Positions 3,204-47,654 of a stretch of 64,000 nt of DNA are shown here, piece by piece. A program made the position numbers and the translations under genes. The DNA lies in NCBI GenBank assembly GCA_005400705.1, contig GCA_005400705.1_4079.1; one strand, given 5' to 3'. Numbering within the stretch: position 1 is the first letter of the stretch; the number at the start of each line of letters is the position of its first letter. This stretch comes from Escherichia coli. GTDB taxonomy: Bacteria > Pseudomonadota > Gammaproteobacteria > Enterobacterales > Enterobacteriaceae. The notes under the pieces are model-generated. The model was not told the DNA's origin. It was given only the letters and a program-made list of their open reading frames with translations, and searched no databases.

Positions 3204-3755
3204 ATGATAGACCAAATTAAAATCCTTACAAAGCAAATCACTGATTTTCTTTCTGATAAAGATGGATTTAATACAGAAGTAAAAATGCACGGTGTTAGTG
3301 TTGATGTAATTGCACCAAATGGTAATGTAACAAGTTACGACATGTATGAATTACTTCTTTATACTCTAGCAGTACGTAAACTAGGTAGTGATATTGAACT
3401 CAACATCAATACTGATGAAAGTGGAAATAAAATTTTTGCAATCAACACCAGTGCTAAATTCGATATCAGTACTGAAATTAAAAAAATAAATGAAAGTTTT
3501 ATTGGCTTTAAGCATGAATCAATTCAAAGTGTTTTTATTGGAAAGCAAACTTCTAATAGTGAATGCCCATATTGTGTAATGACTTTATATAAAGATGGAA
3601 ACTGGATGCGTCAAGATTTAGTATTTGCTGAACTTCTGTATGCATTTACACATGAACTTAAAATCGAATTGGACGATAGTGTTTATTGCTTTAAGAAAAT
3701 TCGCAATATAACTAAAGATATACAAACCCAACTTAAAGAATTAAATGATAAATAA
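3204..3755 (+). CDS. hypothetical protein
   Basis: 183 aa ORF with SD AAGGAAA. Confidence 0.55.
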   Translation: MIDQIKILTKQITDFLSDKDGFNTEVKMHGVSVDVIAPNGNVTSYDMYELLLYTLAVRKLGSDIELNINTDESGNKIFAINTSAKFDISTEIKKINESFIGFKHESIQSVFIGKQTSNSECPYCVMTLYKDGNWMRQDLVFAELLYAFTHELKIELDDSVYCFKKIRNITKDIQTQLKELNDK

Positions 3756-3871
3756 ATATACCAGAAATGGTTAACATATCATGTTACTTTCCTCCCTTAC
3801 ATAATAATGATGCGTTATTATATTTTCATTTTGTTCTTATTCCCCTTTTGGTACAAAATCATTTTAGTACT

Positions 3872-13424: not shown

Positions 13425-13711
13425 AAATTTTAGAAGTCTTGCTAGAAAAAGATGCATCTGGTACTCTTTATGTTGGTAATGAGTTTAGTCCAGATCCAAT
13501 TGATATGTTACAGAGAATCCAAACACTGACTCAAAACATCTCGGTTAAAAAACCGTTTCAGAAAGAATTGGAAATCTTTTGTGATAAAGATATTGAACAG
13601 CATGATAATGTGATTTCAGATATTAAAAGTCTATTGACAAAAAATGGTTATGTAGAGTATAATCCTCCTATCGTAATCGTTATTCCAGACTTCATGAAAG
13701 GAACAATCTAA
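13421..13711 (+). CDS. hypothetical protein
   Basis: SD AAGGA; ATGA overlap. Confidence 0.5.
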   Translation: MKILEVLLEKDASGTLYVGNEFSPDPIDMLQRIQTLTQNISVKKPFQKELEIFCDKDIEQHDNVISDIKSLLTKNGYVEYNPPIVIVIPDFMKGTI

Positions 13712-13980: not shown

Positions 13981-14269
13981 ACATGAAGTAATTCATTTTG
14001 ATGATAAGATCTATATTCCAAATATTGATAGTACTGAAACATATTACCTAATCAATAAGATTATGGCTGAAACAAATACGTGTTGTCGTCAACAGCCAGG
14101 AAAATATGAGTTCAGTCAGACTATTGGTTATTACCGATATGATATGTTAGAATCATTTACAATTGATAAGTCTAAAGTTATTGACATTCTTGTACAGAAT
14201 GGATATAATGAACAACGTGTAAATGATACAGATTTACCAGTTTCAAAAATTGTTCTTTCTAATAATTAA
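13973..14269 (+). CDS. hypothetical protein
   Basis: In-frame ATG overlapping upstream stop (track ORF 13910-14269). Confidence 0.45.
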   Translation: MNKHEVIHFDDKIYIPNIDSTETYYLINKIMAETNTCCRQQPGKYEFSQTIGYYRYDMLESFTIDKSKVIDILVQNGYNEQRVNDTDLPVSKIVLSNN

Positions 14270-14272
14270 AAA

Positions 14273-14301
14273 TTGGACAAGAACGGATATTGTGATATAA
14301 T
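14273..14301 (+). promoter_or_regulatory. sigma70-like promoter with extended -10
   Basis: TTGGAC - 17 nt - TGTGATATAAT. Confidence 0.5.
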
Positions 14302-14334
14302 GTTTGTTATCGGCAGATATTAAAATGCAAACCA

Positions 14335-14357
14335 TTCCTCAATGATGAGGGTTTTTC
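14335..14357 (+). terminator. hairpin + T-run immediately downstream of promoter (attenuator or small-RNA terminator)
   Basis: CCTCA-ATGA-TGAGG followed by GTTTTTC. Confidence 0.4.
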
Positions 14358-14384
14358 ATAAAAAAGAAATAAAAGGGTATTAAA

Positions 14385-14594
14385 ATGGCTAAAGAAACTA
14401 ACGCACAAGTACTAGATATCACCGACTTCGACCGCACTGTGAACTACATTCAATTCCAGATTCATCAAGCAGAAGAAGCTCTAGCAGTATTCCACGGTAC
14501 TGGTGCAAGGCCAATCCGTTTTGCTCACTTGATTGCATGGAAGAAAAGTCTTCAAGAAGAACTATCTGAACTGCGTAAAGCAAATCGTAAGTAA
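14385..14594 (+). CDS. hypothetical protein
   Basis: 69 aa ORF with SD AAAGGG. Confidence 0.5.
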   Translation: MAKETNAQVLDITDFDRTVNYIQFQIHQAEEALAVFHGTGARPIRFAHLIAWKKSLQEELSELRKANRK

Positions 14595-14605
14595 TTTATC
14601 TTACC

Positions 14606-14634
14606 GCCTCATCATTTTTGATGGGGCATTTTAA
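14606..14634 (+). terminator. intrinsic terminator
   Basis: 9 bp stem GCCTCATCA / TGATGGGGC followed by ATTTTA. Confidence 0.5.
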
Positions 14635-17768: not shown

Positions 17769-17945
17769 ATGACACATGAAGAATGGTTAGATGAACTAAA
17801 ATTCAAACATAATCCTTTTGGTTTTGGTATACGCCAAGGTCATTATGATGTGTTAAAAGATAAACAACTTTTCAAATCATTTGTACTTGATGCGGATAGC
17901 AACCACTGGTTCATCTATGAGCTTGCAATTAGAGACAAAAAATAG
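17769..17945 (+). CDS. small protein, MTHEEW family
   Basis: MTHEEWLDELKFKHNPFGFGIRQGHYDVLKD...NHWFIYELAIRDKK; paralog of 18287-18469. Confidence 0.5.
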   Translation: MTHEEWLDELKFKHNPFGFGIRQGHYDVLKDKQLFKSFVLDADSNHWFIYELAIRDKK

Positions 17946-17950
17946 TAAGA

Positions 17951-18049
<99 letters not shown>

Positions 18050-18069
18050 TATAATAAAGGTGATTTAAT

Positions 18070-18285
18070 ATGAAAGTCATTATCAATCCAGCAGGAAACT
18101 TTTTTGGTGAGGTTTTCGGTGCAGACTGTGTTGTGCAAAATTTTCCACGAATTGAAATTGACGGAATTGATGTTCAACAATATGGAAACCTGTACTATGT
18201 AGTTGATGAGACTGGTTCTATTGTTCATGACAGTGCTTTCTTTACAAAAGAAGAGATGAAGCACTTAATTGTACTGGATACATAA
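18070..18285 (+). CDS. hypothetical protein
   Basis: SD AAAGGTGA. Confidence 0.5.
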   Translation: MKVIINPAGNFFGEVFGADCVVQNFPRIEIDGIDVQQYGNLYYVVDETGSIVHDSAFFTKEEMKHLIVLDT

Positions 18286-18286
18286 A

Positions 18287-18469
18287 ATGACACACGAAGA
18301 ATGGATGTCCAAACAGTATAAAGAACATGACTGCTTTGGGAATGGTATTCGTCAGGTACATTATGATATTCTCAAAGATATAAATTTATTCATAAAATAT
18401 GTTTTGGATGAAAATAAACATTGGTTTATATATGAGATTGCATATAGAAACTCAAATAAACAAAAATAA
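18287..18469 (+). CDS. small protein, MTHEEW family
   Basis: Internal ATG of track ORF 18269-18469; MTHEEWMSKQ...HWFIYEIAYR. Confidence 0.5.
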   Translation: MTHEEWMSKQYKEHDCFGNGIRQVHYDILKDINLFIKYVLDENKHWFIYEIAYRNSNKQK

Positions 18470-18483
18470 ATAAGGAATATATT

Positions 18484-18702
18484 ATGGAAACAACGTTATT
18501 TGAAGTTATTCAAGCATTAAAAACTGGTGATGACATTCAAGTATTGCTACATGGTTATCGTTTAAAAGGCACTGTGGTTTTAGTTAATGACACAACGTTA
18601 GTTATTGCCGAAACAAATCCATATGATAGTAATCAAGTTGCTAATATCCATATTGATATTAAAAGCATTATTGGTGTAGGCGTAAATAAAAATCAAGAAT
18701 AA
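18484..18702 (+). CDS. hypothetical protein
   Basis: SD AAGGAA. Confidence 0.5.
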   Translation: METTLFEVIQALKTGDDIQVLLHGYRLKGTVVLVNDTTLVIAETNPYDSNQVANIHIDIKSIIGVGVNKNQE

Positions 18703-18782
18703 CAAATGTTTTTGAAAAAACCAGAAAATGAATGATTTTTTTTTGGGACAACTCAAAAATATATGATATAATAATTAGTACA

Positions 18783-18872
<90 letters not shown>

Positions 18873-18876
18873 ATAT

Positions 18877-18977
<101 letters not shown>

Positions 18978-18979
18978 CC

Positions 18980-19144
18980 ATGACGCATAAAGAATGGATG
19001 AATGACATTAATTTTAGATATGCAGGTTTCGGTAACTGGAGAAAGTATCATTGGGAAATCATGTCAGACCCAGCAGAATACGATAAACTTATAAACCATG
19101 AAGCGTATCCGTGGTTCTTTATTGAAATAATGGTACGAACATGA
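18980..19144 (+). CDS. small protein, MTHEEW family
   Basis: MTHKEWMNDINFRYAGFGNW...; below ORF-track cutoff. Confidence 0.4.
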   Translation: MTHKEWMNDINFRYAGFGNWRKYHWEIMSDPAEYDKLINHEAYPWFFIEIMVRT

Positions 19145-19305
19145 CACATGAAGAGTGGATGAAACGCCAAAAATTAAAGTGGAATCCTTATTATCTCTCG
19201 TTAGAGCCGAGAATGTGGGATGTGATACGTGTTAAATGTATGTACAAATCATTTCTTTGTGATATAATGGATGTTGAAGTTCTGATGCATATTGTGTACA
19301 GATGA
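19141..19305 (+). CDS. small protein, MTHEEW family
   Basis: MTHEEWMKRQKLKWNPYY...; ATGA overlap with previous paralog. Confidence 0.4.
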   Translation: MTHEEWMKRQKLKWNPYYLSLEPRMWDVIRVKCMYKSFLCDIMDVEVLMHIVYR

Positions 19306-19315
19306 TTAAAAAAAG

Positions 19316-19729
<414 letters not shown>

Positions 19730-19786
19730 CTAAATAATTCAGTACCAAGGAGATTAATATGTTTAAAGATGAACGTCCAGATTTGT

Positions 19787-19824
<38 letters not shown>

Positions 19825-19899
19825 GAATTCCACAATCAGACGTATATGGTGTAAGTTACGTCGATGCAATCCAGAACAAGATCTCTGGTACTCTAGGAA

Positions 19900-20109
19900 G
19901 TGGTGAATGTTAACCTAGACGGGTTTGATAATTGGACGATAGGCAATTATTACTTGACTAGCAGGTTTAAACTAGAGGTGATAGTCCTTCACCAAACTGG
20001 AAAACCGGATGGACTTTTATTTAAAAGGGTAAGGCGTGGAAATATGTTTACAGAAGTTGCTTTTAGTAGCCTGTACGCCCCACGTCAAGGTAGCCGAAAG
20101 GCAAGTTAA
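19900..20109 (+). CDS. possible small basic protein, or part of a non-coding transcript
   Basis: 69 aa ORF in a locally GC-richer, structured-looking segment between a promoter and a T8-run terminator; coding status uncertain. Confidence 0.3.
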   Translation: MVNVNLDGFDNWTIGNYYLTSRFKLEVIVLHQTGKPDGLLFKRVRRGNMFTEVAFSSLYAPRQGSRKAS

Positions 20110-20187
20110 AACGGGTGGTTATAAAGCTGAATTAACAGCGGCGTTTAAAAGCGTCACCATCCATTTTTTTTAATTAAAGTTGGTGAT

Positions 20188-20577
<390 letters not shown>

Positions 20578-20602
20578 TATTCAGTACTGATATAATTAAT
20601 TT

Positions 20603-20839
<237 letters not shown>

Positions 20840-20912
20840 CTTTTTAATTTAAAAGTACTTTACTGTAGTGTTTAGTACCGTATAATGTAAACAAAAGGAT
20901 AAAATAAAACTC

Positions 20913-21437
<525 letters not shown>

Positions 21438-21459
21438 TTAAAAAATCAGTACTTTATTA

Positions 21460-21750
<291 letters not shown>

Positions 21751-21751
21751 T

Positions 21752-21844
<93 letters not shown>

Positions 21845-21861
21845 TTCACATGATATAGGGA

Positions 21862-22347
<486 letters not shown>

Positions 22348-22431
22348 AAGAACGAAATGTAGACGGTTGTATTCAGTACTGAATCACATGGGGAGGTTGT
22401 GATTCCCGATTCAGTAGCTTATAAAGCAATT

Positions 22432-22537
<106 letters not shown>

Positions 22538-22556
22538 AGAGGTACTTCGAGTATGC

Positions 22557-22682
<126 letters not shown>

Positions 22683-22684
22683 TA

Positions 22685-22771
<87 letters not shown>

Positions 22772-22826
22772 GACTGCCAAACAGCTTGAAGTACTTTGTA
22801 GTGCTGCACCTATGCCGACACTTGGC

Positions 22827-22936
<110 letters not shown>

Positions 22937-22940
22937 ATCT

Positions 22941-23011
22941 GGTTGATTAGTTAAATGGTATAACACGGATCTTGTAAGTCTGAGTCATTAGTTCGATTCT
23001 AATATTGACCA
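22941..23011 (+). tRNA. tRNA-Thr (anticodon UGU)
   Basis: Acceptor GGTTGAT / ATTGACC (with G-U pairs), D arm GTTA-AATGGTA-TAAC, anticodon loop CTTGTAA, T arm ATTAG-TTCGATT-CTAAT; no encoded CCA. Confidence 0.7.
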
Positions 23012-23076
23012 CAAATATATTCTTAGAAATAACATTTTTCTTGAAAATAAATACTCCATACTATATGGAGAACTAT

Positions 23077-24817: not shown

Positions 24818-24938
24818 ACGTATAATGATATTACCCTCAAATTCATTATATTCGTTACCCTCTAACAGTATCTTTTTATTCCTCTTGGATGCTGTAATTT
24901 AGAAGTTGACTTTTTAACTTCTACTGTGTTATACTTAA

Positions 24939-24966
24939 GGCTGATTCGATGAATCGGCCTTTTTTC
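24939..24966 (+). terminator. intrinsic terminator
   Basis: GGCTGATTC-GAT-GAATCGGCC hairpin followed by a T6 run. Confidence 0.55.
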
Positions 24967-27962: not shown

Positions 27963-28751
27963 ATGAGCAACATTTTCTTCAAAACTATTTCTTTCAAAAA
28001 AGCATCTTACTCCTACGCCTACGTTGATGGTAAAGTGCTTAATATTGTACTGGATGGTGTTGACGTACCAGTTGAATTTAAAACACATGAAGAAGCAGTT
28101 GAAGGTGCTAAAGAATTGAATTCAATTCTTAATGGTGAAGTAAGTCAAAAACAACATGTAAAATCTGATTTAGATGTACTTTTGGAAAAAATCAAAACTG
28201 GTGAAGTATTAGAAATTTTAGACAACTGTAATGAAAAACTTCGTAATGTAGTTAATAATGTTCGTGACCAGATTCAAGAAAAAGCACTAGAGCAAGCATT
28301 CAAACATGTATCCAAGAATGCTGAATCTCGTATTGACGGTATGGTTAAAAATCTTGATGATGTACTATCTCATCTCTTTACTAAAGAATACGAACAAGAA
28401 GTTGAAGAAGAACCAGTAAAAGAAACTAAAAAAGAAAAACGTAGCTTTGGCTCAGGTGATGATGTGTTTGGTTTTACGAATGTCCGAACAAGTGCAGATG
28501 AACCAAAAGAAATTAGTGAGATGCTCATTGGTGACATGACAACTAAGCAGCTTCGTAATGAAATTGACAAGTTTGTAACTAGTTGTATCAAATCAGAACG
28601 TGCACAAAGTATGTTTAAAAGCATTAGTGAGAACTTTGGTCCAGAAGCAACTGAGCAGGCACTAACTGCATTTAAAGAATTGATTTATAATGTAGCCATT
28701 AGCAATCCAGATAAAACACTTGAAGAAGTTCTACGTGACAATTTCAAATAA
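27963..28751 (+). CDS. hypothetical acidic protein
   Basis: ATG after AAGGAG (track ORF 27939-28751); E/K-rich. Confidence 0.5.
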   Translation: MSNIFFKTISFKKASYSYAYVDGKVLNIVLDGVDVPVEFKTHEEAVEGAKELNSILNGEVSQKQHVKSDLDVLLEKIKTGEVLEILDNCNEKLRNVVNNVRDQIQEKALEQAFKHVSKNAESRIDGMVKNLDDVLSHLFTKEYEQEVEEEPVKETKKEKRSFGSGDDVFGFTNVRTSADEPKEISEMLIGDMTTKQLRNEIDKFVTSCIKSERAQSMFKSISENFGPEATEQALTAFKELIYNVAISNPDKTLEEVLRDNFK

Positions 28752-28766
28752 TTAGATAAAATTAAA

Positions 28767-28792
28767 GCCACTACAATGTAGTGGCTTTTTTT
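28767..28792. terminator. bidirectional intrinsic terminator
   Basis: GCCACTA-CAATG-TAGTGGC hairpin flanked by an A-run upstream and a T7 run downstream, between convergent genes. Confidence 0.6.
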
Positions 28793-33470: not shown

Positions 33471-33499
33471 TTGACATAACAAATAATATGGAGTACAAT
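33471..33499 (+). promoter_or_regulatory. sigma70-like promoter
   Basis: TTGACA - 17 nt - TACAAT. Confidence 0.5.
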
Positions 33500-33538
33500 G
33501 TGCTCCTAATTTAATTATCAGCTAAAAAGGAAAACATT

Positions 33539-35749: not shown

Positions 35750-36360
35750 TGAAGTAAAAGTTTGTGATATAATTATCTTGTACAATTCTGTTGGCATGAT
35801 ATTCATGTACCTGATCCACTCGAAAACGTAGAGGGCAGTTGAGCAGTCCGACAGTGCGAACAGCAAAAGAAACCCGTTAGATGTGGGCATAGTTTGAACC
35901 CCTCACGGCAATGCGGCTGTATAAAGAACCACGTTAGGATAGCTGGTGGTTCCTTGATAGACATATAAGGATAACACCTTACGAATTATCTAAGGGAGAG
36001 TTATCAAATTTTGTACAGGAAAGTTGCGTCCAGAATTTGAGTACTCACATTAAGTATTTGATTGCATAGATACTTAATGAAGATACACTATGTTTAAAAG
36101 TGTAGACCGTCATATGAAACTGAAGTAGAGAGAAACAGGATGACCCGCTTTCGCACTCGTTATGAGTAATCTTCAATGCAATAGCTCTGATACCATCAGC
36201 GTCAAATTTCCCTCCTTGTGGGGGGGAAGAAAAATCCCTTCCTCAAATCCCGTCAATATTAAAAGTCCTTGACAGTTATTAATCATTCGCGTAGAATACG
36301 TAGTATTAGAAGCGAACAGACATCTCTTCGAGATGGATGATTAACCATTAAGGAATATCA
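35750..36360 (+). ncRNA. candidate structured non-coding RNA (unclassified)
   Basis: About 610 bp with no ORF of 60 aa or more on either strand in an otherwise saturated genome; locally GC-richer; extended -10-like TGTGATATAAT at 35763-35773. Confidence 0.3.
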
Positions 36361-36361
36361 A

Positions 36362-36571
36362 ATGAATTCAGTAATCTTTTTAGTAGTCGCTTTCTCTGTT
36401 AATTCCGGTGTACAAATTACCCCAATGAACTCAATGAACCAATGTTTTTCTGTACGTGACAGTACTTATGATCAAGTAAACCACATGTCACTTATGACAG
36501 TTAGTAAAGAAAGTATGTGGTGTTACAATAGTAATACTAACACAAAGCTTATTGTAGGACAAACTCAATGA
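36362..36571 (+). CDS. hypothetical protein
   Basis: SD AAGGAA. Confidence 0.5.
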   Translation: MNSVIFLVVAFSVNSGVQITPMNSMNQCFSVRDSTYDQVNHMSLMTVSKESMWCYNSNTNTKLIVGQTQ

Positions 36572-38091: not shown

Positions 38092-38119
38092 CTTGACAGA
38101 AGATATCAGTACTGTATAA
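38092..38119 (+). promoter_or_regulatory. sigma70-like promoter with extended -10
   Basis: TTGACA-GAAGATATCAGTACTG-TATAAT. Confidence 0.6.
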
Positions 38120-38165
38120 TGTTTATATCAAACGAAATCCACTTTAACAAATGATAGGAAATATT

Positions 38166-38444
38166 ATGTCTTTTTCTAAAGAAGAACGTGACCTTATTAA
38201 AAAAGCAATTTGGTTTTATGCTAATGAAGGGAAGTGCGATGAAGAAAAAGCACGTGAACTGTGTAATATCCTTGAGAAGAAACAAGAACTGAAAGTGTTT
38301 CGTATCCGTGATTTGGATGAAGGGGATCGTATTGTCCTAGCTGAAACAAAAGAAGAAGCAGAACAAATCTTCACTGATAAAAACGAAAATCCACATTGGA
38401 TGGAAGAAGTCTGTGATGTTAAAAAAGGTACTTATATCGATTGA
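38166..38444 (+). CDS. hypothetical protein
   Basis: ATG after AGGAAA (track ORF 38151-38444). Confidence 0.5.
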   Translation: MSFSKEERDLIKKAIWFYANEGKCDEEKARELCNILEKKQELKVFRIRDLDEGDRIVLAETKEEAEQIFTDKNENPHWMEEVCDVKKGTYID

Positions 38445-38469
38445 CAGTACTGAATAATAGCAGTATAAT
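38441..38469 (+). promoter_or_regulatory. sigma70-like promoter
   Basis: TTGACA-GTACTGAATAATAGCAG-TATAAT. Confidence 0.55.
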
Positions 38470-38481
38470 GTTTATATCAAA

Positions 38482-38540
38482 GGGAATGCAGTGAAAGGAA
38501 AGACAGCATAATCGTACTCGTCACTGCGTTCCCGCCCTTT
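38482..38540 (+). terminator. 13 bp hairpin + T-run just downstream of promoter (terminator, attenuator or small RNA)
   Basis: Arms GGGAATGCAGTGA / TCACTGCGTTCCC with a 26 nt loop, followed by GCCCTTTT. Confidence 0.45.
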
Positions 38541-38562
38541 TAAATTAAATGAGGAATTAACT

Positions 38563-38871
38563 ATGTTTCAAACTAACACTCAAGGTTTTGTAATCATCGA
38601 TTTGAATCAAAACAGCGGTTATTGGATGAAACCTACTGACGCATGTATGCAGTTTGATTTCTTAGGTTACAGAATTAGTGTAAGTACTGGTGCTTCTGTA
38701 CTGAGAGGTGGTTGTATCGTTGAACATCTGGTAACTGATCCAGAAGGTCGTGAGTATGAAATCGCAGGTTCAGTACAAGATGCCATTATGTTTGTATGTC
38801 AGCGTGAAATGAATGGTTCGAATTCAAATGCACTGACTCATGCTCTTTCTCAAGAAGTGGAGGTTCGTTAA
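38563..38871 (+). CDS. hypothetical protein
   Basis: SD GAGGAA. Confidence 0.5.
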   Translation: MFQTNTQGFVIIDLNQNSGYWMKPTDACMQFDFLGYRISVSTGASVLRGGCIVEHLVTDPEGREYEIAGSVQDAIMFVCQREMNGSNSNALTHALSQEVEVR

Positions 38872-42187: not shown

Positions 42188-42417
42188 TACTAAGTTTTGT
42201 TGTTGCACTATTGTTTATGTTTTATCCTACACTAGTAGCATTAGCCACTAAACGACCGATTGTAGATATCACTACTGTATTCTTGCTAAACGTGGCATTA
42301 GTACTGGTTTCTATTATCATTCCCGTGAGCTTTACTGTTATTGATATTGTGTCGGTATTACTCTTCGTAATCAGTTATCTTATGCTTATTGAAGAAAAAC
42401 CAGTTGACAACCATTAG
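42178..42417 (+). CDS. small membrane protein (hypothetical)
   Basis: Two TM segments. Confidence 0.45.
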   Translation: MYLVLSFVVALLFMFYPTLVALATKRPIVDITTVFLLNVALVLVSIIIPVSFTVIDIVSVLLFVISYLMLIEEKPVDNH

Positions 42418-43988: not shown

Positions 43989-44180
43989 ATGTTGATTTAT
44001 CAAAGTGAAAATATTCGTGTTATGCAGCATCCCTACTTACAAATCTTTGATGTGCAGCAGTATATGGAAGGTGATGACCCAAGAACCTATGGTCGTAAGT
44101 ATGATTACTTCACTGTAAAGCAGTGTAAAAATATTAACGAAGTACGACAATTAGTTCAAGAACTTCAAAACAAAGGTTGA
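43989..44180 (+). CDS. hypothetical protein
   Basis: ATG after AAGGA (track ORF 43935-44180). Confidence 0.45.
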   Translation: MLIYQSENIRVMQHPYLQIFDVQQYMEGDDPRTYGRKYDYFTVKQCKNINEVRQLVQELQNKG

Positions 44181-44198
44181 CTTCGGTCAGCCTTTTTT
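44175..44198 (+). terminator. terminator hairpin GGTTGAC-TTCG-GTCAGCC (repeat family) overlapping a -35 box
   Basis: 7 bp stem with UUCG loop and T6 run; TTGACT inside the stem is 18 nt upstream of TATAAT. Confidence 0.6.
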
Positions 44199-44234
44199 GT
44201 TATAATTCTCTTAATAAATTAGAGGATTTTAATT

Positions 44235-46909: not shown

Positions 46910-47024
46910 TTTAACTTTGGGACAACCATTCTTATTATGATATAATGTTTTATGTCATTCGATATAAATGACAACGGAACTATAAATATTATAGTAAAAT
47001 TTATCTCTTATAGGAGTTATAAAA

Positions 47025-47408
47025 ATGGTTGATAAATGGAATAAGAAAGATCCATCACATGATGTTGATATTTCTGGTCTAGACAATGCACATAAGCACA
47101 AGTATCTAGATTCACTAGGTCTTCTAAAACCGGACCAAAGTCTTGCACATGATCGTCCATCCCGTGAAAAAGCATTTAGCCTAGAATCACTAGGTCATGA
47201 GCTTAATCGTGTGTTTGAGGATCACCCAATCTATGTACGTGATATTATCGAGAAACTTAAAGTAACTCCTAAAGAGCACTTTAAAGCAACAGTACACTCT
47301 GCATTCCGTGCATTGCATGATTCTCTCAAGAAAACTCACAATCTTCGTAAAATTCATGATGAAATCGTGAATGCAATCGAAAGTGAAAAACATAAGTTCA
47401 AGAAGTAA
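47025..47408 (+). CDS. hypothetical protein (shares YLDSLGLL motif with 47655 gene)
   Basis: SD AGGAG; KYLDSLGLLKPDQ. Confidence 0.5.
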   Translation: MVDKWNKKDPSHDVDISGLDNAHKHKYLDSLGLLKPDQSLAHDRPSREKAFSLESLGHELNRVFEDHPIYVRDIIEKLKVTPKEHFKATVHSAFRALHDSLKKTHNLRKIHDEIVNAIESEKHKFKK

Positions 47409-47591: not shown

Positions 47592-47599
47592 CAAAATAA

Positions 47600-47624
47600 G
47601 GTTGACTTCGGTCAGCCTTTTCTT
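47600..47624 (+). terminator. terminator hairpin GGTTGAC-TTCG-GTCAGCC (repeat family)
   Basis: Identical stem-loop to 44175, followed by TTTTCTTT. Confidence 0.6.
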
Positions 47625-47654
47625 TATACTATAAATATAGTCATAGAGAAAAAA

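Follow-up and report, generated by a model that had tools for sequence, protein, structure and literature searches.

We put at roughly 0.6 the probability that two sites in a jumbo coliphage genome each carry an early promoter followed by a conserved structure in the leader RNA, that the two structures are unrelated, and that neither is primarily a terminator; the same weight applies to a structured-leader or small-RNA reading overall. The sites lie in a stretch of 64,000 nucleotides (nt) from an assembly assigned to Escherichia coli (GCA_005400705.1, contig GCA_005400705.1_4079.1), hereafter the window. A preliminary description, made from the letters of the window, had noted at both sites a sigma70-like promoter, a stable hairpin and a T-run, and had concluded that most transcripts would terminate there. 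The observation is real but was over-read: what had been taken for terminators are two unrelated types of conserved structure in leader RNA, each of a kind already known: the structured 5' untranslated region (UTR) at site 1 and the phage tRNA-like small RNA at site 2. The argument draws on promoter class, conservation, covariation, homology and gene layout.

The window comes from an Asteriusvirus (121Q/PBECO4-like) jumbo phage, with 121Q, PBECO4, G17 and others, of about 350 kb, among its relatives. Identity to the Asteriusvirus jumbo phages of Escherichia and Salmonella is 98-99.7% in the region of site 1 and 92-97% in that of site 2, and matches of lower similarity include the Klebsiella phages RaK2 and K64-1 (Alcyoneusvirus), Salmonella phage Munch and Erwinia jumbo phages. 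All genes of the window are on the + strand, and the plausible ones are nearly all small and of unknown function. Phages of the RaK2/121Q type have been isolated in large numbers for phage therapy.

Promoters and the two-hairpin leader of site 1

Matches to the sigma70 consensus of at least 11/12 number 30 on the + strand of the window and 1 on the - strand, a bias which argues that these promoters are real as a class and are read by the host RNA polymerase. Looser matches are not enriched (105 found, 116 expected from shuffles). Both sites are genuine early promoters of this class. They lie where the preliminary description had placed them, match the consensus at 11/12 and 12/12 positions and are kept in relatives; at site 1 the core tgtgaTATAAT recurs in Munch, RaK2, Hallingskeid and IMG/VR relatives. 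The described order of promoter, hairpin, Shine-Dalgarno sequence and gene is likewise correct at both sites, and the hairpins necessarily lie within transcripts from these promoters. A distance of 30-40 nt from promoter to hairpin applies to site 1 (35 nt after the -10 box) and not to site 2 (13 nt). Site 1 comprises the following features.

14274-14301, + strand: promoter, TGGACA (-35), 16-nt spacer, TG of an extended -10, TATAAT at 14296-14301; 11/12 sigma70 consensus
14308-14319, + strand: stem-loop H1, UAUC-GGCA-GAUA, at or near the transcript 5' end (predicted fold)
14320-14335, + strand: single-stranded linker UUAAAAUGCAAACCAU; family consensus UAAAACGU
14336-14351, + strand: stem-loop H2, UCCUCA-AUGA-UGAGGG, the hairpin of the preliminary description
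14352-14356, + strand: T5 run after H2, lineage-specific
14373-14594, + strand: Shine-Dalgarno AAGGG (14373-14377) and gene for a 69-amino acid (aa) protein (14385-14594), phrog_15704, function unknown
14606-14632, + strand: strong intrinsic terminator, GCCUCAUCA-UUUU-UGAUGGGGC, then AUUUU; closes the monocistronic unit

Judged from the window alone, H2 is not significant. It has 6 base pairs (bp), three of them G-C, and a folding energy of -6.2 kcal/mol (z = -0.54), and 46 of 200 shuffled sequences fold equally well, so that it does not deserve the term stable; terminator-like sites of its grade occur in the window near chance frequency (12, against 7.3 +/- 3.2 expected).

The comparative data give a different picture. 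We collected the regions upstream of the 69-aa gene from GenBank phages, IMG/VR and metagenomes. This gave 20 distinct leaders, and two stem-loops could be delimited in 19 of them. All 19 have a common architecture, in which the -10 box is followed after 6-8 nt by the tetraloop hairpin H1 and, beyond H2, by a U-rich and then an A-rich stretch, AAGGG and AUG. H1 is mostly CAUC-GACG-GAUG, with AUCAG-UAAAAAG-CUGAU in RaK2 and CGAC-GACA-GUCG in Hallingskeid. The sequence of H2 is almost free while its pairing is kept: its stems include UCCUCA/UGAGGG, GUUCUCA/UGAGAAC, GGUACUUA/UAAGUACU, GCUCUC/GAGAGC, UCUCUC/GGGAGA, CAUUCA/UGAAUG, GUCUC/GAGAC and one A-U stem of 13 bp.

MAFFT with RNAalifold misaligned H2, and MAFFT re-gapped N-padded input, so a structural alignment of the 19 leaders was made by hand and its pairs were counted with a script of our own. 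Pairing in this alignment, fitted to the structure, extends to 97% of cells, and both partners have changed in 13 of the 14 pairs; 500 shuffles never attained this level, and in slid registers 27-50% of cells pair. As the alignment had been fitted in this way, each leader was also folded on its own: alignment-free minimum free energy folds recover both H1 and H2 in 17 of 19 (mean z = -1.8), as well as in additional IMG/VR leaders. The many G.U pairs are compatible with the + strand RNA only. A pattern search of IMG/VR for H1 plus linker also matched unrelated GC-rich coding DNA. On these sequences, site 1 has the hallmarks of a conserved structured 5' UTR or cis-acting RNA, at the same position beside an orthologous gene and with compensatory pairing.

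The same comparison bears on the notion that the hairpins are chance structures without function beside real promoters. The indifferent fold of H2 in the window and the near-chance frequency of sites like it are what that notion would predict, but the retention of both structures across genera with compensatory changes, together with the fold at site 2 (z = -5), contradicts it, and we assign it a negligible probability.

Several features of the gene and its surroundings bear on what the leader does. The 69-aa gene is conserved throughout the RaK2-like jumbo phages, and the orthologue in fENko-Kae01 is annotated as identified by liquid chromatography-tandem mass spectrometry. The sole nearby promoter lies upstream of H2, with none between H2 and the AUG. 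The intergenic stretch that holds the terminator at 14606-14632 folds with z = -3.5 (ARNOLD score -14.3 in the G17 annotation). Of the 18 relatives read, 17 have a GC-rich hairpin and a short U tract behind the orthologous gene; the exception, L032, has no U-run. Given an orthologous product annotated as detected by mass spectrometry, a single promoter upstream of H2 and a strong conserved terminator beyond the gene, H2 cannot be an efficient terminator. The AlphaFold2 model of the protein is a helical hairpin.

A plausible mechanism can be outlined. Transcription would start about 7 nt past the -10 box, which would put H1 at the very 5' terminus, with H2 following about 25 nt later; H1 indeed begins 7 nt past the -10 box, and it is the spacing alone that suggests its terminal position. 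Since the sequences of H1 and H2 are free and only pairing is kept, the stem-loops presumably act as physical structures. They may shield the 5' end of the mRNA and block access of RNase E, and with the terminator hairpin at the 3' end they would yield a long-lived message; the U5 after H2 in this phage would cause leaky termination at most. Site 1 would thus be a self-contained monocistronic cassette of promoter, H1, linker, H2, Shine-Dalgarno sequence, 69-aa gene and strong terminator. The conservation of the stem-loops as shapes, the predicted position of H1 and the strong 3' terminator make such an mRNA-protecting cassette the best-supported reading, so that site 1 is probably a structured 5' UTR that stabilises its mRNA. 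A two-hairpin leader found across several genera is a possible compact mRNA-stabilising module and offers a handle on a universally conserved protein.

The most sequence-conserved part of the leader is the linker, at 14320-14327 in the window and in the orthologous leaders (consensus UAAAACGU), which neither a stabiliser nor a terminator model accounts for. A candidate leader peptide, MQTIPQ*, from 14325 was rejected: its AUG has no Shine-Dalgarno sequence and is ACG in most orthologues, so that there is no conserved leader peptide. Folding of the window and its relatives revealed no alternative antiterminator pairing in the leader. The 9-nt AUGAUGAGG (14342-14350, H2 loop and 3' arm) is perfectly complementary to CCUCAUCAU (14608-14616, 5' arm of the terminator); a 5'-3' interaction was rejected, as relatives have no such match and the complementarity is probably a coincidence. 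Two 12/12 promoter matches, at 13634-13663 and 14181-14209, lie within the open reading frames (ORFs) just upstream of site 1.

Elsewhere in the window, many strong promoters have a common extended core, cAGTACTGTATAATGtttat. An apparent promoter at 1626-1655 with similar-looking downstream sequence was rejected, being within a small ORF. Two further promoters, at 46917-47026 and 36269-36362, have leaders of unusual length (79 and 65 nt) in which hairpins are predicted (z = -2.3 and -1.45), and these may be further structured leaders of the same general kind.

The hairpin of site 2 and its tRNA-like relatives

Site 2 carries a single large hairpin between its promoter and the next gene.

38441-38469, + strand: promoter, TTGACA-17-TATAAT; 12/12 sigma70 consensus; conserved in relatives
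38482-38533, + strand: 13-bp stem (38482-38494/38521-38533) with an invariant 26-nt loop at 38495-38520 (AAGGAAAGACAGCAUAAUCGUACUCG)
38534-38562, + strand: GCCC spacer, TTTT at 38538-38541 and GAGG at 38551-38554, the ribosome-binding region of the gene at 38563-38871

The 13-bp arms of the preliminary description are as stated, with one U.G pair, and the fold is strongly non-random: -24.3 kcal/mol, z = -5.0, with none of 200 shuffles as good. In eight Asteriusvirus sequences the hairpin is invariant save for a C-to-U change that turns a G-C into a G.U pair. A distant relative, L040, found through the downstream protein (85% protein identity), has AGCGAU...AUCGCU in place of GGGAAU...GUUCCC, that is, three double compensatory changes and a U.G to U-A change relative to the window, with the inner stem and all 26 loop bases identical; a covariation tool counted two of these three doubles, one column being gapped. 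All cells of the site 2 alignment are paired, compared with 32-54% in slid registers. A core of 36 nt, comprising the 26-nt loop and the inner stem, is present once in every one of the 36 Asteriusvirus records, unannotated and with 100% identity; the 2.5 kb around it are 90-97% identical in the same records. A covarying stem under an invariant loop is the signature of sequence-specific loop recognition, and conservation of this degree implies a specific molecular partner. At site 2, too, constant position and compensatory pairing point to a conserved structured leader or cis-acting RNA.

The origin of the element is suggested by RaK2, in which a pseudo-tRNA, annotated as 'tRNA-OTHER', stands behind the same promoter (TATAATgtttatatcaa) and the same upstream gene. 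This gene folds as a cloverleaf, with the acceptor stem GACAAGU/ACUUGUC, a T arm and an 'anticodon arm' with ACAGCAUAAUGGUACUCGUC, to which the loop sequence ACAGCAUAAUCGUACUCGUC of the window is homologous. By alignment, the window element is the RaK2 gene with three parts missing: the D arm, some of the T arm and the 3' strand of the acceptor. K64-1 has a different tRNA-like element at the same spot, without a D arm, and in Alcyoneusvirus relatives the orthologue of gene 38563 is preceded by about 300 nt that contain two tRNA-like structures. Apart from the RaK2 pseudo-tRNA, neither the site 1 nor the site 2 element is annotated in the phage records examined.

A role as a decoding tRNA is ruled out for the site 2 hairpin. 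ARAGORN calls no tRNA there, nor in the counterparts from RaK2, K64-1 and metagenomes, and 38482-38533 has no match to Rfam RF00005 even at E <= 10; RaK2 homologue no. 1 is also uncalled. At the gathering threshold, only tRNAs pass in a search of the whole window against Rfam, with no family at either site, and at permissive thresholds the best hits at the two sites reach 15-17 bits against gathering scores of 36-47.

The spacing from promoter to RNA is nonetheless that of the phage tRNA genes. The hairpin begins 13 nt past the -10 box, and the tRNA genes of the window, which ARAGORN places in a cluster at 17973-23012, have their mature 5' ends 7-13 nt past their own -10 boxes. The tRNA genes Gly 17973, Ser 18783, Ser 20603 and Ser 21499 (17932-21590) have one promoter apiece; that at 21499-21590 is assigned the unusual anticodon ACT (Ser) by ARAGORN. 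In Alcyoneusvirus, arrays of aberrant tRNA-like genes lie directly behind early promoters, at 2714-2800, 3606-3681 and about 3721-3815 in RaK2 (L006 numbering), at about 22758-22816 in K64-1 (L010 numbering) and in L041-L047. Their anticodon loops are 11-19 nt long, one has no D arm, and one, about 95 nt in length, has a canonical T arm; a single one reaches the Rfam tRNA threshold (30.4 bits), and ARAGORN calls none.

Our best reading is that site 2 represents a small RNA or leader element derived from a tRNA-like gene. It would be a minimised derivative of such a gene, the full cloverleaf-like version of which stands at the same place in RaK2. Transcription would start about 6 nt ahead of the 13-bp stem, whose only role would be to present the loop to a protein or RNA partner that recognises it by sequence. 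The hairpin might then be cleaved off the 5' end of the early transcript and accumulate as a small stable RNA, or it might act in cis on the mRNA of the genes from 38563 onward.

A bolder version, which we regard as quite a long shot, holds that every Asteriusvirus has at site 2 a functional minimised tRNA-derived RNA whose loop serves as a sequence-specific bait or guide, for example as a decoy that draws off a host tRNA-modifying enzyme or a defence nuclease directed at tRNAs, or as a regulator of host or phage RNA. If true, this would define a new class of jumbo-phage small RNA, with RaK2 displaying the same loop on a full tRNA-like scaffold and the path from tRNA gene to bare hairpin traceable between genera.

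Terminators and small RNAs as alternatives

The preliminary description held that transcripts from both sites mostly terminate. A weaker form of this claim is that the hairpins are leaky intrinsic terminators or attenuators, halting some of the transcripts that come from the adjacent promoter and from others upstream, and so tuning or timing the downstream genes and possibly relieved by a phage antitermination factor. We consider it unlikely, mainly on account of what is and is not conserved. Behind H2, U5-6 occurs in L026-L029, as in the window, and a U-run is also present in UE-S1, but it is absent or reduced to two or three U in JNE01, Munch, RaK2, Hallingskeid, L024, L025, L031, L032 and L038, with the hairpins kept by covariation in the first four, L025, L031 and L032. 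In place of the run, JNE01, a close relative, reads CUUUC and Munch UAUUCG; RaK2 and L025 share CAUUCU, while L031, L032 and L038 have either ACUUUG or AUCUUG. At site 2 the tail is variable as well, the U-run being altered to CCUAUU in UE-S1 and UUU in CMSTMSU while the hairpin is kept. In the window itself, U5 directly follows the stem at site 1, and at site 2 GCCC sets the TTTT off from it. This TTTT is part of CUUUUAAAUUAAAUGAGGAA, whose homologue in RaK2 is the ribosome-binding region upstream of ORF257, there without a preceding hairpin.

The stems tell the same story. The true terminators of the family are much stronger GC-rich hairpins, such as the nearby one at -14.3 (ARNOLD), against which H2 stands at -6.2 kcal/mol. 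Because of the 26-nt loop and the GCCC between stem and TTTT, a terminator scan did not call site 2; nor would a terminator need an invariant loop. Three independent terminator annotations, those of G17, UE-S1 and Munch, pass over site 1, and that of UE-S1 also passes over site 2; the annotators of G17 and Munch did mark the strong hairpin past the 69-aa gene, and terminators further downstream. At both sites the next gene is conserved although no promoter separates it from the hairpin. Past site 2, the next consensus promoter of at least 11/12 comes only at 42404, which makes efficient termination there unlikely. Neither site thus shows the stable GC-rich stem with a loop of 3-8 nt and the U-tract kept in orthologues that mark a Rho-independent terminator, and beyond the presence of U's in this genome neither has the testable features of one. 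An attenuator is largely unsupported, too: a conserved short ORF with its own ribosome-binding site and alternative pairings, as expected of leader-peptide attenuation, was not found, and the U-runs are not conserved. A hairpin with a few T's in AT-rich phage DNA should not be called a terminator without comparative data.

A number of points weigh against the reading of both elements as conserved leader structures. The hand-fitted alignment inflates the pair counts of site 1. Four or more U directly follow H2 in about 40% of lineages, the window included, and a role for H2 as an at most leaky terminator is possible there, if secondary. The genuine terminators of the family also have short U tracts (GGCAUUUUAA), which the tail of site 2 resembles, with CC or GCCC and then UUUUAA after the stem in the window and L040, so that some termination past that stem is possible; and at neither site is there a terminator between the upstream ORF and the promoter. 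The covariation of site 2 comes from one diverged sequence, L040, and from changes of G-C to G.U. Searches for a loop partner found no match to the loop among 5,426 E. coli genomes, and complementarity inside the window was at chance level (5 nine-mers, 6 expected). The 69-aa protein yields no functional clue, with no informative match in Pfam, PHROGs or Foldseek and none at E <= 0.001, which supports autoregulation no more than it argues against it. Finally, we infer from the sequences the start sites, 3' ends and RNA stability in this phage group, as well as the stabilisation, the processing and the loop partner. Degenerate loop patterns searched in IMG/VR and GTDB genomes gave 66 and 16 hits, rejected as chance on a flank identity of about 25%.

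Short hairpin RNAs were the other outcome envisaged in the preliminary description, and for site 2 this is plausible. In its full form the proposal is that site 2, and possibly H1-H2-U5 of site 1 in this lineage, gives rise to trans-acting small RNAs of about 50-65 nt with host or phage targets, or to decoys such as a mimic derived from a tRNA anticodon arm. The tRNA-like spacing of site 2, its homology to the RaK2 tRNA-like gene, its invariant loop and its covarying stem all fit, and the succession of H1, A/U-rich linker, hairpin and U5 tail at site 1 resembles the layout of Hfq-type small RNAs. There is, however, no conserved 3' end signal, the U-run is missing in most site 1 lineages, no complementary target was found in the E. 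coli genomes, and complementarity within the window is at chance level. We treat trans-acting RNAs as possible but doubtful, and retain conserved leader structure as the common description of both sites.

Comparison with known systems

Like Rho-independent terminators and leader attenuators, both elements place a hairpin and U residues between a promoter and a ribosome-binding site. They differ in the weak stem of site 1, in the 26-nt loop and GC spacer of site 2 and in the lack of a conserved U-tract; moreover, neither a leader peptide nor an antiterminator pairing has been identified, and the conserved downstream genes depend on read-through.

Site 1 is closer to the 5'-terminal stem-loops of the ompA type, which hinder 5'-end-dependent attack by RNase E on bacterial and phage mRNAs. 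In both cases a short hairpin lies a few nucleotides from the 5' end, here a predicted one, and at site 1 a second hairpin precedes the Shine-Dalgarno sequence, structure is conserved with the sequence free, and a strong terminator closes the 3' end. The conserved linker UAAAACGU has no counterpart in ompA-type leaders, and the start of the site 1 transcript is only predicted. The put RNAs of phage HK022, which form two stem-loops just downstream of a promoter and act in cis on RNA polymerase, resemble site 1 in layout alone: a promoter, two stem-loops in the nascent RNA and a terminator downstream. Here, however, that terminator appears to end the unit rather than to be bypassed.

For site 2 the nearest parallels are phage tRNA-like and pseudo-tRNA genes, among them the small stable RNAs of the T4 tRNA cluster, species 1 and 2. 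Like these, site 2 specifies a small structured RNA directly behind its own early promoter, in or near the phage tRNA region, and its loop is homologous to the anticodon-arm equivalent of the RaK2 'tRNA-OTHER'; unlike them, it has no cloverleaf, lacking acceptor stem, D arm and T arm. The transcriptome of phage PA5oct (PMC7318152) contains sigma70-like promoters and four non-coding RNAs, with nothing that corresponds to either element, and we found no study of early gene regulation in jumbo phages of the RaK2/121Q type.

The last comparison is with the promoter-early stem-loop (PeSL) cassettes of T4-type phages (Arbiol et al. 2010, PMC2839356; Comeau et al. 2014, PMC4122927), in which the stem-loops lie upstream of, within or just before the promoter start site, in five positions, and terminate upstream transcription (PMC2839356). 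The likeness is evident: a strong sigma70-like early promoter, a stem-loop and a Shine-Dalgarno sequence stand between small genes of unknown function, and promoter sequences serve as crossover points for the loss or exchange of cassettes among close relatives, as is seen next to site 2.

38093-38444, + strand: sister promoter (38093-38120) with the cassette of a 97-aa gene (38151-38444), lost in relatives by promoter-to-promoter recombination

CMSTMSU and eight other Asteriusviruses are without the gene at 38151-38444, the crossover falling inside GTATAATGTTTATATCAAA, which the promoters at 38093 and 38441 have in common (L004 2461-2530). In Turkey5 the same promoter is joined to a different gene, and divergence of RaK2 and K64-1 sets in right past the same promoter core. 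From such events one might suppose that promoter and stem-loop together form a module for the shuffling of small genes, with hairpins that have no function as RNA. Several findings make this improbable. What is repeated is the promoter core GTATAATGTTTATATCAAA, while each hairpin is single-copy, and site 1 shows neither rearrangement nor indel. With starts 35 nt (site 1) and 13 nt (site 2) past the -10 box, both hairpins fall inside the transcript and thus outside the PeSL positions, and they are conserved by covariation with orthologous genes, in a RaK2-like rather than a T4-like phage; covariation and the invariant loop point to selection on the RNA. Hairpins that are inside the transcript, single-copy and under selection at the RNA level are not PeSL stem-loops.

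Other composites in the window, at 24906-24961, 28735-28788, 33471-33506, 44172-44206 and 47598-47630, combine a strong hairpin and a T-run that overlap the -35 or -10 box or lie 1-2 nt past the -10; all of them come closer to the classic PeSL geometry than either of the two sites studied here, and true PeSL-like composites, such as that at 44172-44206, are among them. The use of promoter cores as crossover points for cassette loss in jumbo phages extends the PeSL idea beyond the T4-like phages.

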